Source: a virus. From it: a DNA stretch of 64,000 bases. The stretch covers positions 8,552-72,551 of IMG/VR virus record IMGVR_UViG_3300032893_000031. One strand, given 5' to 3'. A program made the position numbers and the translations under genes. Shown one piece after another: positions 8,469-64,000 of the stretch; positions within the stretch are counted from its first letter, which is position 1, and every line of letters starts with the position of its first letter. Under the pieces are notes generated by a model that saw only the letters and a program-made list of their open reading frames with translations, did no database searches and had not been told where the DNA came from.

Positions 8469-8614
8469 TCCAATCGGCCATTGCGTTTTCGTATCAACCG
8501 CAGCGAATATTTAATTGAGGGGCTAGTCTTTTTCTTCGGAACGCGGAGATCGGCGGTCTGCGGAGCGAGAACATCCTTAAGCGTCATATCGAGAAGTTCC
8601 TTTTGGCTGTGCAT
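8456..8614 (-). CDS. small hypothetical protein, 52 aa (below ORF-track cutoff)
   Basis: Hand translation gives MHSQKELLDMTLKDVLAPQTADLRVPKKKTSPSIKYSLRLIRKRNGRLEWRD. It starts 2 nt after the upstream stop, and its stop overlaps ATG 8456 (TGATG). Confidence 0.35.
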   Translation of the reverse strand: MHSQKELLDMTLKDVLAPQTADLRVPKKKTSPSIKYSLRLIRKRNGRLEWRD

Positions 8615-61440: not shown

Positions 61441-62298
61441 GTGAATGGCTACGCCAAAGTATTTGCATCCCTTTTCGACGGCTCACTCCGGGGCCAGTCC
61501 GATGAAATCCTAGTTTTCGTTTACCTGCTCTGCAACGCCACGGCCACCGGCGCCTCGGAGGTCCATCGGGATAAGATTTCAGACGACACCGGCCTTAGCC
61601 GCGCCCGGGTGAACCGCGCCATATCCGCCCTGGAGGCAGCGGACCCGGAATCCAGAACCCCCGACGAAGAAGGCCGAAGGATCGTGCCTCTGGATGGCCG
61701 CGGATGGGGTTGGAGGATAGTTAACCATAAGAAATACAGGGAGTTATGCGGGGATGGTAGGTATGCGGCGCTGGCTGCTAAAAGAATGCAAAAACTCAGG
61801 GAGAAGCAGTCCGTTACGCAACGTTACGCAACAGACGTAACGGTTGCGCAACAACATGCTTCTGCCTCTGCTTCTGCATCTGTAACGGAAGGGGGAGTGG
61901 GGGAAACCCGTTGGGCGGAAATACCAGACTGGTTGACGTTCTGGGAATATTGCCGCCAGATTGGCCTTGGCGCCGAATGGTGGGCCAAGGACAAGTTCCT
62001 TGCAGCCTGCCAAGGGAATTGGGAGAAGCAAAGGAACTGGAAGGCGTATGTCACCAGGATAAAGGTCTGGTGGGAGGAGGCTGGCAGGCCATTTAATCCT
62101 CCGAAGCCCAAAGGGTTCGAGCGCCAAGAGCCGTCACCCAAACCCGTCAACCGCGAGGTCTTTGAGTGCGCGGGCTATAAGTGGGACAGGAACGGTCCAG
62201 GCCCGCAAGCCTCAGACTTCCCGCGCTCGCGCTCGCCCCAAGCCGATGCGGATTGCTTCCGAGCCGAATGGGACAAATGGCTAAAGGCCACAGCATAA
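61441..62298 (+). CDS. replication organiser / replication-initiation-like protein (N-terminal winged helix)
   Basis: 285 aa from GTG 61441. FASLFDGSLRG..ILVFVYLLCNA..ISDDTGLSRARVNRAISALEAAD resembles phage replisome-organiser N-termini. Located next to the DnaB-type helicase. Confidence 0.5.
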   Translation: MNGYAKVFASLFDGSLRGQSDEILVFVYLLCNATATGASEVHRDKISDDTGLSRARVNRAISALEAADPESRTPDEEGRRIVPLDGRGWGWRIVNHKKYRELCGDGRYAALAAKRMQKLREKQSVTQRYATDVTVAQQHASASASASVTEGGVGETRWAEIPDWLTFWEYCRQIGLGAEWWAKDKFLAACQGNWEKQRNWKAYVTRIKVWWEEAGRPFNPPKPKGFERQEPSPKPVNREVFECAGYKWDRNGPGPQASDFPRSRSPQADADCFRAEWDKWLKATA

Positions 62299-62310
62299 GA
62301 AAAGGAGACG

Positions 62311-63186
62311 ATGCGTGAGCTACACCTATTTGCAGGAGCAGGGGGAGGAATCCTCGGCGGAATGCTTCTCGGACATACCTGCGTTTGTGCTGTCGAGATC
62401 GAGCCTTATCGCAGACAAGTCCTCCTGCAACGGCAACGAGACGGCATTATGCCAAGGTTCCCAATCTGGGATGACGTGCGAACATTCGACGGAAAGCCGT
62501 GGCGAGGACTCGTTGACGTTGTGTGTGGCGGGTTCCCTTGTCAGGACATCAGCCAAAGCGGAAGTAGAACCGGAATTAACGGACCCAAAAGTGGACTTTG
62601 GAAACAAATGGCACGAGTCATTTGCGAAGTTAGACCCGCAATCGTGTTCGTGGAAAATTCGGCAGCTCTTTCTGTTCGAGGGCTTGGAACAGTCCTTGGA
62701 GATTTGGCCCAAATGGGGTTTGATGCAAAGTGGGGAGTGTTGGGAGCTTCCGATGCCATCTGGCTTGAGGGAATACCGGCTTACGATCATGAGCGTCTTA
62801 GAATCTTCATCAAGGCCACCCACCCCACTCGTTTCCGGGAATTACAACAGGAAGGGCGCATCAAAGACAAGCGGGGACGGACTAGCAACGGCTTTGAGGA
62901 AGTTGGGGCGCCTTCCAACCCCAACAGCCAGCGACAACAAAGTAATGAAAGCACCCGAGAAGTTCAAGCGAACGAAAACGGGAATGCTTCGCCATTTGAA
63001 TCCGCACGGAGAAGAATCACAATGCCGCCTGCAACAAGTGATAACAGTGACGGATGGTGGTCCAATGAACCCGGAGTGGGTAGAATGGTTAATGGGATGG
63101 CCAATCGGAATGACCGCATTGCAGCCATTGGAGACGGACAAGTTCCAGCAGTGGTTAAGCTCGCATGGGAAACATTGAGCCGATGA
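62311..63186 (+). CDS. DNA (cytosine-5)-methyltransferase
   Basis: 291 aa. Motif I LFAGAGGG, motif IV GGFPCQDIS, motif VI FVENS, motif VIII-like HERLRIFI, motif X-like AIGDGQVPAV. Confidence 0.8.
   Translation: MRELHLFAGAGGGILGGMLLGHTCVCAVEIEPYRRQVLLQRQRDGIMPRFPIWDDVRTFDGKPWRGLVDVVCGGFPCQDISQSGSRTGINGPKSGLWKQMARVICEVRPAIVFVENSAALSVRGLGTVLGDLAQMGFDAKWGVLGASDAIWLEGIPAYDHERLRIFIKATHPTRFRELQQEGRIKDKRGRTSNGFEEVGAPSNPNSQRQQSNESTREVQANENGNASPFESARRRITMPPATSDNSDGWWSNEPGVGRMVNGMANRNDRIAAIGDGQVPAVVKLAWETLSR
62315..63178 (+). CDS. full-length alternative-frame ORF overlapping the methyltransferase gene (possible overprinted gene)
   Basis: 287 codons without a stop in the +1 frame. Contains PPTPLVSG, LPTPTASDNK and NPEWVEWLMGWPIGMTALQPLETDKFQQWL. 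Its third-position GC is higher than in the MTase frame by hand count. GTG 62315 lies 7 nt from AAGGAG. Confidence 0.35.
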   Translation: MSYTYLQEQGEESSAECFSDIPAFVLSRSSLIADKSSCNGNETALCQGSQSGMTCEHSTESRGEDSLTLCVAGSLVRTSAKAEVEPELTDPKVDFGNKWHESFAKLDPQSCSWKIRQLFLFEGLEQSLEIWPKWGLMQSGECWELPMPSGLREYRLTIMSVLESSSRPPTPLVSGNYNRKGASKTSGDGLATALRKLGRLPTPTASDNKVMKAPEKFKRTKTGMLRHLNPHGEESQCRLQQVITVTDGGPMNPEWVEWLMGWPIGMTALQPLETDKFQQWLSSHGKH

Positions 63187-64000
63187 GCGACCGCCTTCCC
63201 CCGCACTCCGAGGCTGACGAAAACGCCGTCATGGCTGCCATCCTGCTTGATTACAAAGTCGCGCTCCCAATGGTCCGGGCGGAACTACCACAAGGCCAGG
63301 ACAGCTTCTACGTGGTCCAGAACCAGAACCTTTACCGATTCGTGATGGAGATGGACGCCGCGGGCAAAGCCATAGACCCGGCAACCGTGGCTGGCTGGCT
63401 CAAGCCCGAGCAAATGGAGTCGGTTGGGGGGATCGCCCGACTTGCCGGCCTGCCCGACCATATCGGCAGCATCCTGAACCTTCAGACCCACTTGGAAGCC
63501 GTTCGGGCCAAGCATCGGCTGCGCTCGATGATTCGGGTGTGCTTGGATGCCACGGCCAAGGCATACGAGGCCAACGGCGCCGGGGATGACGTGCTGGCTG
63601 AATTTGAGGCCGACGTGATGGCGATCCGCAATTCCACCGAGGGCGCGGGCGGATTCTCCGACGTGTGCGAGATTGCGCGTGCGCTCGTGGACGACTACCA
63701 AGCGGCGTGCGACGGCGATCTTCCGATGGGGGTTGAAACCGGCTTCATTGATCTTGACCGCACCGAGGGCGGGATGTTCCCCCAGGAAATGATTGTGCTG
63801 GCGGGGTTACGGAGCAGCGGCAAAACCTCGCTCGCCTTCAACATCGCCGTGAACTGCGTCCGGCGCGGGGATAAGGCGGGGATAATCTCCCTCGAAACCT
63901 CAGCCAAGAAAGCCGTTCACCGGATGCTTTCCTCCATCGGCCAATACGACGGGAGTGAGCTGCTTCGCGGGCGAGTGATGCAAGGCACCGAAGAAAAATG
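63183..64000 (+). CDS. dnaB: replicative DNA helicase, DnaB family (3' truncated by the window edge)
   Basis: Hand translation from ATG 63183 (ATGA overlap with the MTase stop). LPPHSEADENAVMAAILLD is the DnaB N-terminal motif. VETGFIDLD..MIVLAGLRSSGKTSLAFNIA is the Walker A region. The frame is open to the end of the window. Confidence 0.8.
   Translation, partial: MSDRLPPHSEADENAVMAAILLDYKVALPMVRAELPQGQDSFYVVQNQNLYRFVMEMDAAGKAIDPATVAGWLKPEQMESVGGIARLAGLPDHIGSILNLQTHLEAVRAKHRLRSMIRVCLDATAKAYEANGAGDDVLAEFEADVMAIRNSTEGAGGFSDVCEIARALVDDYQAACDGDLPMGVETGFIDLDRTEGGMFPQEMIVLAGLRSSGKTSLAFNIAVNCVRRGDKAGIISLETSAKKAVHRMLSSIGQYDGSELLRGRVMQGTEEK

Follow-up and report, generated by a model that had tools for sequence, protein, structure and literature searches.

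A phage C5-methyltransferase gene kept open in two frames: a probable two-subunit enzyme read from a single stretch of DNA

Can a gene be read from end to end in two frames on the same strand, and be meant to be read in both? This is the question raised by a cytosine C5-methyltransferase gene found in a 64,000-nucleotide (nt) stretch of viral DNA (positions 8,552 to 72,551 of the IMG/VR record IMGVR_UViG_3300032893_000031), the whole of which is called here the window. In frame 1 the gene encodes a methyltransferase, hereafter alpha, and in frame 2, shifted by +1, it is open for almost the same length, its putative product being named beta. A first description made from the letters alone, the sequence-only reading, had pointed out these two stop-free frames and proposed two proteins made from one locus, a programmed frameshift, or an annotation trap. 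Its coordinates and its open reading frames (ORFs) of 291 and 287 amino acids (aa) are as given, and all the motifs that it quoted are found in the two translations. The first of its three options is favoured here, both frames being selected as well as open: the locus is probably a dual-coding gene for a two-subunit (alpha/beta) phage C5-methyltransferase whose starts lie 4 nt apart. What that option had lacked was an identity for the second subunit, as well as the precedent of the two-subunit enzymes M.EcoHK31I and M.AquI.

How improbable is such a second frame? When the gene's own codons are shuffled, a mean of 7.5 stops appears in the +1 frame, which is open by chance with a probability of 5e-5 (the earlier estimate of about 1e-4 was therefore about right); calculated from base composition, the figure is 1e-6. 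The lowered GC content that had been described is also borne out: 0.529 for the methyltransferase gene vs. 0.593 for the window, with frame 1 having a third-position GC (GC3) of 0.481 and frame 2 one of 0.617, as compared to 0.64–0.85 in neighbouring genes. The more telling evidence comes from relatives, gathered in a viral sample (80 loci found via frame-2 patterns and 80 via frame-1, or methyltransferase, patterns) and in a bacterial sample (80 loci, one genome per bacterial species). At every viral locus fetched, the frame-2 relative sits in frame 1 + 1. Of the 113 unique viral genes, 108 have two open and nearly co-terminal frames, which is the depletion of +1-frame stops that the sequence-only reading had proposed to look for, while the third frame has about 16 stops per gene. 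That tally includes 78/80 of the viral loci chosen by frame-1 similarity alone. Both frames are likewise open in 72/80 of the bacterial-genome loci, which come from Planctomycetota, Verrucomicrobiota, Patescibacteria, Acidobacteriota, Spirochaetia, Bacteroidota, and many Proteobacteria. A blastn search of complete E. coli genomes gave four weak matches, all of them annotated as DNA cytosine methyltransferase.

Might frame 2 nevertheless be untranslated, its openness and its similarity to other proteins being a mere by-product of nucleotide conservation in the methyltransferase? Over the catalytic core, frame-2 conservation is indeed largely a shadow of frame 1. However, if the frame-1 protein is held fixed and its synonymous codons are permuted, 4.35 stops are expected in frame 2 and just 1.8% of genes would be open. 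In related enzymes, that frame contains 14 stops (single-chain form) and 6 stops (short-overlap form), and the linker and the motif IX box described below show a coding signature in frame 2, not in frame 1. The same calculation can be done by segment with the other frame's protein fixed: frame 2 over the catalytic core has 0 stops vs. 3.56 expected, and frame 1 over the linker has 0 vs. 3.49. By these counts, each frame is held stop-free outside its own selected segments, and the by-product explanation, already contradicted by the comparative data, is extremely improbable.

Which frame, then, is selected where? Codon-position entropies (H1 to H3) and Nei-Gojobori ratios of non-synonymous to synonymous differences (pN/pS; values in Table 1) yield the same mosaic: by both measures, purifying selection alternates along the gene from frame 1 to frame 2 and back to frame 1. 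Over the catalytic core, entropy in frame 1 follows the order H3>>H1>H2, and frame 2 is a stop-free leader with a few constrained boxes. In the following region, named for its PTP (proline-threonine-proline) repeats, the most variable sites are frame-2 third positions, and frame 1 is an unconserved, disordered linker, 27–182 codons long but kept open. The sequence-only reading had rightly placed the PTP motifs over what is a mere linker in the methyltransferase frame, since frame 1 is unconserved there, with a predicted local distance difference test score (pLDDT) below 50 and a pN/pS of 1.16. Next comes the IX box, also selected in frame 2. Its frame-1 motif EPxVGRVAxGVAxRVDR looks conserved, but is a shadow of the frame-2 box. 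In the X box, made up of the last 20 codons, the highest entropy is found at H3 of frame 1, and the frame-2 tail PLETDKFQQWLSSHGKH (63121..63186) is largely a shadow of the alpha motif X segment. The last ~130 nt do contain conserved blocks in both frames, as had been noticed, but the dual constraint is not equal, with 63056-63120 belonging to frame 2 and 63121-63183 to frame 1.

The imprint of frame 2 can be seen in the synonymous codons of alpha. Across the IX box these are near-fixed (CCC for P254 in 101/104 genes, GGT for G257 in 92/93, GGG for G262 in 105/106, and GCC for A264 in 104/105). In the leader, V114 is GTG in 90/90, giving W113 in beta, where GTA would be a stop; A133 is GCC in 93/93, giving P132; and G136 is GGG in 109/109, giving G135. 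These three alpha codons are fixed because the beta residues are kept. The reduced synonymous variation sought by the sequence-only reading is thus present in alpha where beta residues need it.

Translation starts bear the same mark. At +4, ATG serves as the beta start in 106 of 114 genes, and GTG does so in 3, that of the window among them. The ATG results from alpha codon 2, which is AAT in 101/102 even though AAC is the commoner asparagine codon in these genes. The usual start motif is [A/G/T]TGAATG, and the ATGCGTG type seen in the window recurs. On this evidence, the beta start codon is itself under selection. The AAGGAG of the window lies where the sequence-only reading had put it, 3 nt before ATG 62311 and 7 nt before GTG 62315. 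Across the family, a Shine-Dalgarno-like core is mostly found 4–5 nt before the alpha start and 8–9 nt before the beta start, and this spacing suggests a site suited to both.

What does each frame encode? Alpha matches Pfam PF00145 at 3e-26 over aa 2-196, the match stopping at profile position 194 of 324, and phrog_363 at 6e-60. The catalytic motifs I (FxGxG), IV (PCQ), VI (ENV), and VIII (QxRxR) of C5-methyltransferases are all present, and the alpha profile aligns to residues 15-173 of M.HhaI. In the AlphaFold2 (AF2) model, pLDDT exceeds 90 over aa 1-170, falls below 50 over aa 181-260, and is 82–96 over aa 261-291, where C-terminal helices are predicted at 266-275 and 279-290. The modelled fold is that of only the large domain of M.HaeIII/M.HhaI (Foldseek, E 1e-14), superposing on ~175–187 of the ~325 template columns. 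Between motifs VIII and X, alpha has neither a folded variable (target-recognition) domain nor a motif IX, and aa 181-260 are unconserved. Motif X, selected in frame 1, closes the protein; it reads IGDGQVPAV in the window, where the family consensus is IGNGQVP. The Asp replacing the usual Asn is shared with the closest relative (L001), and in frame 2 the change (AAC to GAC) leaves the amino acid as it was (GAA to GAG).

Beta belongs to a large family. The sequence-only reading had likened it to a widespread phage family, and this family does exist: in a 5.8-billion-protein collection, the beta query matches 5615 predicted proteins at E<=1e-3. The 120 best matches listed mostly cover ~100% of the query, with identities from 100% down to ~38%, and no Pfam domain is found among them. 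The C-terminal 128 aa match 6105 clusters at 50% identity. Beta, its IX box included, has no Pfam or NCBIfam match; among the PHROGs, it is matched by phrog_1008 ("DNA methyltransferase") and by two small groups whose function is unknown. Searches of PDB sequences with the beta profiles A1 and A6 gave no match even at E<=10. The repeats over frame-1 codons 166-250 have the form [WL]PTP..[SQ]D. In the leader, the boxes between 62609 and 62752 have AF2 pLDDT values of 68–81, and mycobacteriophage Medusa also has a leader box in its +1 frame.

The key to beta is provided by relatives in which the same blocks are arranged differently. In Mycobacterium phage prophiFSAT01-1 gp6, a single-chain enzyme of 451 aa, one and the same frame encodes motifs I, IV, VI, and VIII as well as four PTP repeats, LNPRFSEWMMGWPQDWV, and GNGVVPQQ, and there are 14 stops in the +1 frame and 8 in the +2 frame. 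The alpha profile matches gp6 residues 6-189 (E 6e-31), while the beta profile matches residues 387-412 (E 1e-9, probability 96%, hhalign). As the two profiles match different parts of gp6, the frames of the window encode parts of what is one polypeptide in this relative. Judged by this alignment, the PTP repeats and IX box of beta are homologous to the variable-region and motif-IX part of single-chain C5-methyltransferases. For this reason, the functional part of beta is not de novo. A de novo overprinted gene was rejected as a candidate, given these in-frame single-chain homologues and an overlap extending across many bacterial phyla. The term "overprinted gene" used in the sequence-only reading therefore suits the N-terminal leader of beta and the frame-1 linker, but not the PTP repeats or the IX box.

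Other relatives are split. In Mycobacterium phage Medusa (L247), gp78 carries motifs I-VIII and ends directly after VIII, and PTP repeats, FSEWMMGWEEGWVT, and GNGVVVQQ (the IX box plus motif X) are found in gp77, which is read in the +1 frame. The two overlap by ~23 nt as annotated, and perhaps by ~57 codons: the +1 frame is open for about that length upstream of the gp77 start, encoding TFPTSGMTRSG, a counterpart of the WPxWGxMxxG box of beta. Over the 180 codons that precede the annotated start of gp77, this frame contains 6 stops. The true start of gp77 ("DNA methylase") probably lies upstream of the annotated one, as nt ~1335-1507 of L247 encode TFPTSGMTRSGRLLPL in the same frame. Closer to the window are five variants (L164, L166, L174, L183, and L191) having motif X in the beta frame and an alpha that ends just after motif VIII. 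In L164 and L166, the two loci read downstream of this point, the alpha frame gains 7 and 20 stops, respectively. In variants of the L164/L166 type, frame 2 still overlaps the whole catalytic core, and an ATGAATG-type start was read directly in L166.

A few further arrangements were encountered. In the bacterial loci L177, L197, and L226, alpha ends after motif VIII and the beta tail PL..D[KR][FY].EWQ..H lacks motif X, which is visible in neither product. Either these copies are perhaps in decay, or a third piece may contain motif X. Proteins P0244 and P0260 (also P0373 and P0322) begin in the alpha frame and go on in the beta frame, without motifs VI and VIII. Although P0244 and P0260 differ in sequence, their junctions are identical and come just past motif IV (GGFPCQDISVAG, then GV..LTEN), which suggests a fixed frameshift in a lineage rather than random sequencing errors. 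A viral contig (L070/L147, IMGVR_UViG_3300020049_010573) contains two dual-frame methyltransferase genes in tandem, at 536-1273 and 1314-2075, and the second has a stop in its frame-2 leader, a rare case.

Could beta be translated and selected, and yet be independent of the methyltransferase, for instance as an anti-defence or regulatory protein encoded by a true overprinted gene? Its lack of a Pfam domain or structural match would be in keeping with this, as would the conserved N-terminal peptide and the WPxWGxMxxG box, which have no counterpart in single-chain enzymes. However, the part of beta that is most conserved has its homologue in the VIII-X segment of a single-chain C5-methyltransferase, several variants carry motif X in beta, alpha alone is without any folded variable domain, and in the M.EcoHK31I precedent such a beta is needed for activity. 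An unrelated function for beta is thus considered unlikely.

Would a single mosaic protein do as well? It would be made through two programmed frameshifts, one of +1 following motif VIII and one of −1 ahead of motif X, the frame-2 start remaining unused. The selected segments (frames 1, 2, 1) do follow the motif order of the single-chain enzyme, and in some variants the alpha stop comes directly after motif VIII with the +1 frame going on. Yet no slippery sequence or homopolymer is conserved at either junction, and the first junction is highly variable. The segments left unused are stop-free rather than decaying (0 vs. ~3.5 expected in each), and the +4 ATG is under selection. Nor do chimeras raise the PF00145 or TIGR00675 scores: joining the frame 1 N-terminus to the frame 2 C-terminus, or frames 1-2-1, gave 88.7 bits vs. 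92.9 for frame 1 alone, with no extension of the match in Pfam or NCBIfam. On these grounds, the frameshift option of the sequence-only reading is disfavoured, and a mosaic protein appears very unlikely.

The two-subunit reading must itself be weighed against several points that count against it. The AF2 monomer model of beta is poor (mean pLDDT 61; predicted template modelling score, pTM, 0.31), being confident only over aa 1-30, 101-160, and 211-250, and it matches nothing in the PDB (Foldseek), this noise being due to the low confidence of the model. A subunit that folds on its partner could well give such a weak model, although nothing is proved by this. Motif IX is not recognised in the beta box by Pfam, NCBIfam, or PDB sequence searches, and the equation of this box with canonical motif IX comes from the single-chain mycobacteriophage relative. 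When the variants containing IX+X were aligned by hhalign with the C-terminus of M.HhaI, the register was as expected but with an E of 0.05 and a probability of 1%. In the leader, beta identity is 0.306 vs. a null of 0.244, and the third frame reaches 0.281 vs. 0.248. As this excess over the frame-1 by-product is modest, the leader is described here as kept open and weakly constrained.

Finally, beta could be made from an internal start near M136/M137 (nt 62720-62725), giving a product of ~150 aa, either in addition to the +4 start or instead of it. Position 137 of beta is Met in 83/109 (alpha D138 being mostly GAT), the 176-aa beta of M.EcoHK31I starts internally and tolerates N-terminal deletions, and beta chains of the Medusa gp77 type begin inside alpha. 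M137 is, however, less conserved than M1 (Met in 102/109 in alignment columns; ATG in 106/114 genes). Nothing else than a start at +4 explains the stop-free 165 upstream codons in 108/113 genes or the selection for AAT at alpha codon 2, and Medusa-type genes with an internal beta start have 6 stops in the upstream +1 frame. The internal start is accordingly given little credence.

How might the two-subunit enzyme favoured here work? One mRNA with a single Shine-Dalgarno site would feed both starts. Frame 1 would yield alpha, in which a disordered spacer would link the catalytic core (motifs I-VIII) to the helix of motif X, and frame 2 would yield beta, composed of a leader weakly constrained over the core, the PTP-repeat region, and the LNPxWVEWLMGWPxGWT box. 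The PTP repeats are probably the target-recognition part, and the box would be the counterpart of motif IX. Alpha and beta would then assemble into an active enzyme as in M.EcoHK31I, whose likely role would be to protect phage DNA from host restriction by methylating it. Comparison with relatives argues strongly for two translated frames, and translation of both products is inferred from it. The complex is postulated by analogy, beta would be the specificity subunit, and the alpha:beta ratio would be set by the strength of the start codons. As for its origin, a single-chain enzyme may have been split by a frameshift after motif VIII, beta may then have been extended back to the alpha start, and a second shift may have put motif X back in the alpha frame.

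A broader proposal can be built on this, to which slightly less than an even chance is given when it is taken as a whole. In it, the co-extensive dual-coding gene would be an ancient, cross-phylum standard for orphan C5-methyltransferases of phages. Two starts behind one Shine-Dalgarno site would partition the ribosomes, with start identity (ATG, GTG, or TTG) setting the subunit ratio. Catalysis would evolve in one frame and target recognition (a PTP module of 27–182 codons) in the other, and the leader boxes (the N-terminal peptide and WPxWGxMxxG) would be overprinted inventions serving as the alpha-beta interface. If this is true, the ~287 codons would rank with the longest same-strand overlaps that are known to be conserved in bacteria or phages, and thousands of "hypothetical proteins" would be methyltransferase specificity subunits.

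Why has this layout not been recognised in annotations? On this contig, the gene called by the Joint Genome Institute (JGI) is that of the frame-2 protein (P0001, 100% identical), so the methyltransferase is missing from the contig annotation. The frame-1 query finds at least 8000 annotated methyltransferases, its own sequence being absent and the best match being 72% identical. Gene callers are thus split between the two frames. GenBank offers a similar picture, with frame 1 annotated in Salmonella phage S9-5 and frame 2 annotated, as hypothetical, in Pseudomonas phage phPA-G. Cultured phages that carry the gene include these two (MW722521 and PP083311, respectively), Acinetobacter phage ABMM1 (OQ471969), and Vibrio phages. 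Since standard gene callers permit one of two fully overlapping ORFs on the same strand, every carrier genome misses either the methyltransferase or beta. The two-frame layout recurs in thousands of phages and prophages, with one protein annotated out of two. The "annotation trap" of the sequence-only reading is therefore real in practice, as callers pick one frame, but the idea of frame 2 as a mere by-product is contradicted by its coding signature.

The consequences are several. More than 6000 "hypothetical" clusters (at 50% identity) lacking a Pfam domain would be explained, and an overlap of ~860 nt is kept from Planctomycetota and Verrucomicrobiota to prophages of Pseudomonas, Acinetobacter, and Leptospira. 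Constraint is cleanly segmented, each frame being "coding" where the other is "spacer," and natural controls exist in the single-chain enzymes, the short overlaps, and the genes having motif X in one frame or the other. All this makes for a tractable system in which to follow the origin and upkeep of dual coding. Two starts 4 nt apart behind one ribosome-binding site are a simple and testable device for obtaining two subunits per message. If beta carries target recognition, methyltransferase specificity would not be predictable from the annotated enzyme alone, and an alpha cloned without an intact beta frame would give an inactive enzyme.

The features of the locus are collected in Table 1. 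The start codon of the helicase gene downstream overlaps the alpha stop as ATGA (read from the sequence). A large terminase and an HNH endonuclease are also encoded in the window, and together with the DnaB-like helicase they indicate a phage or prophage replication module. Upstream, a 285-aa ORF (61441-62298) ends 13 nt before the methyltransferase start and occupies the position expected for a replication-initiation or origin-binding protein; no PHROG match was found for it at 1e-5. On the minus strand, an ORF of 165 codons (62326-62823) lies opposite the part of the gene that encodes the catalytic core. In Salmonella phage S9-5 (L163), which is P22-like, an adenine methylase (907-1500) directly precedes the dual-frame methyltransferase (1497-2231) with a 4-nt overlap, so that two methyltransferases lie within one translationally coupled block.

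Table 1. Features of the dual-frame methyltransferase locus, in window coordinates.
Feature	Position	Strand	Frame and remarks
Shine-Dalgarno AAGGAG	62302..62307	+	Read from sequence; apparently common to both start codons
Alpha ORF	62311..63186	+	Frame 1; ATG 62311, TGA 63184-63186, 291 aa; C5-methyltransferase catalytic subunit
Beta ORF	62315..63178	+	Frame 2 (+1); GTG 62315, TGA 63176-63178, 287 aa; putative second subunit
Catalytic core, alpha codons 1-165, motifs I-VIII	62311..62805	+	pN/pS 0.26 frame 1, 1.19 frame 2
Alpha motif I	62326-62349	+	Frame 1
Alpha motif IV (PCQ)	62527-62553	+	Frame 1
Beta leader box W..S.AK.DP...SWK..Q	62609-62665	+	Frame 2, inside leader
Alpha motif VI	62647-62661	+	Frame 1
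Beta leader box WPKWGLMQSGECWELP	62705-62752	+	Frame 2, inside leader
Alpha motif VIII	62788-62811	+	Frame 1
PTP-repeat region of beta, alpha codons 166-250	62806..63075	+	Frame 2 selected; PPTP 62816-62827, LPTPTASD 62912-62935; pN/pS 1.16 frame 1, 0.23 frame 2
Beta IX box LNPxWVEWLMGWPxGWT (GGPMNPEWVEWLMGWPIGMTA)	63056..63120	+	Frame-1 reading EPGVGRMVNGMANRNDR is its shadow; pN/pS 1.23 frame 1, 0.18 frame 2
X box, last 20 codons (IGNGQVP): alpha motif X helix AAIGDGQVPAVVKLAWETLSR and alpha stop	63121..63186	+	Frame 1 selected again; pN/pS 0.33 frame 1, 0.84 frame 2
Alpha motif X	63124-63153	+	Frame 1
DnaB-like replicative helicase	63183..64000, runs off window	+	phrog_19, 1.5e-32

How does this gene compare with systems already known? 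Two natural two-subunit C5-methyltransferases have been described, M.AquI and M.EcoHK31I, and the alpha/beta organisation of the latter was reportedly described by Lee, Kam and Shaw in 1995. In M.EcoHK31I, from E. coli, alpha carries motifs I-VIII together with X, and IX is carried by beta, both being needed for activity; the 176-aa beta is encoded in another frame that begins inside the 309-aa alpha, the target-recognition domain is assigned to alpha, and the enzyme is part of a restriction-modification system (PMC2836561, PMC3404938). The window gene likewise has a second polypeptide in an alternative frame within the alpha gene, this frame being open, conserved, and selected. Its motif distribution, deduced from the selected segments and set against the published description of M.EcoHK31I, is the same. 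It differs from it in that beta is co-extensive with alpha (287 vs. 291 codons) and starts 4 nt after it, the only conserved sequence between VIII and X is in the beta frame, and the gene is an orphan in a phage replication module.

In M.AquI, from Agmenellum quadruplicatum, alpha contains motifs I-VIII and beta the rest of the variable region along with IX-X. This enzyme and Medusa gp78/gp77 resemble the window gene in being split in the variable region after motif VIII, and their motif distribution also occurs within the window family, in the variants L164, L166, L174, L183, and L191. In Medusa, however, the overlap is short and the +1 frame has stops over alpha, whereas in the window the overlap is total and motif X is in the alpha frame. 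The single-chain actinophage C5-methyltransferases, such as prophiFSAT01-1 gp6, have the same blocks in the same order (I, IV, VI, VIII, PTP repeats, LNPxFxEWMMGWPxxW, GNGVVP), but in one frame only and with neither the beta leader nor the WPxWGxMxxG box. Literature searches found no paper on this overlap as a widespread phage methyltransferase architecture, only the M.EcoHK31I/M.AquI precedent, and its breadth thus appears to be undescribed so far.

Same-strand embedded genes are of course familiar from phages, as with lambda Rz1, which lies within Rz in the +1 frame, or the overlapping genes of phiX174. Both products of Rz/Rz1 are functional partners, as is proposed here for alpha and beta. 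The lambda and phiX174 overlaps are however short, measuring tens of codons, while that of the window extends over ~287 codons, with each frame functional in complementary segments.

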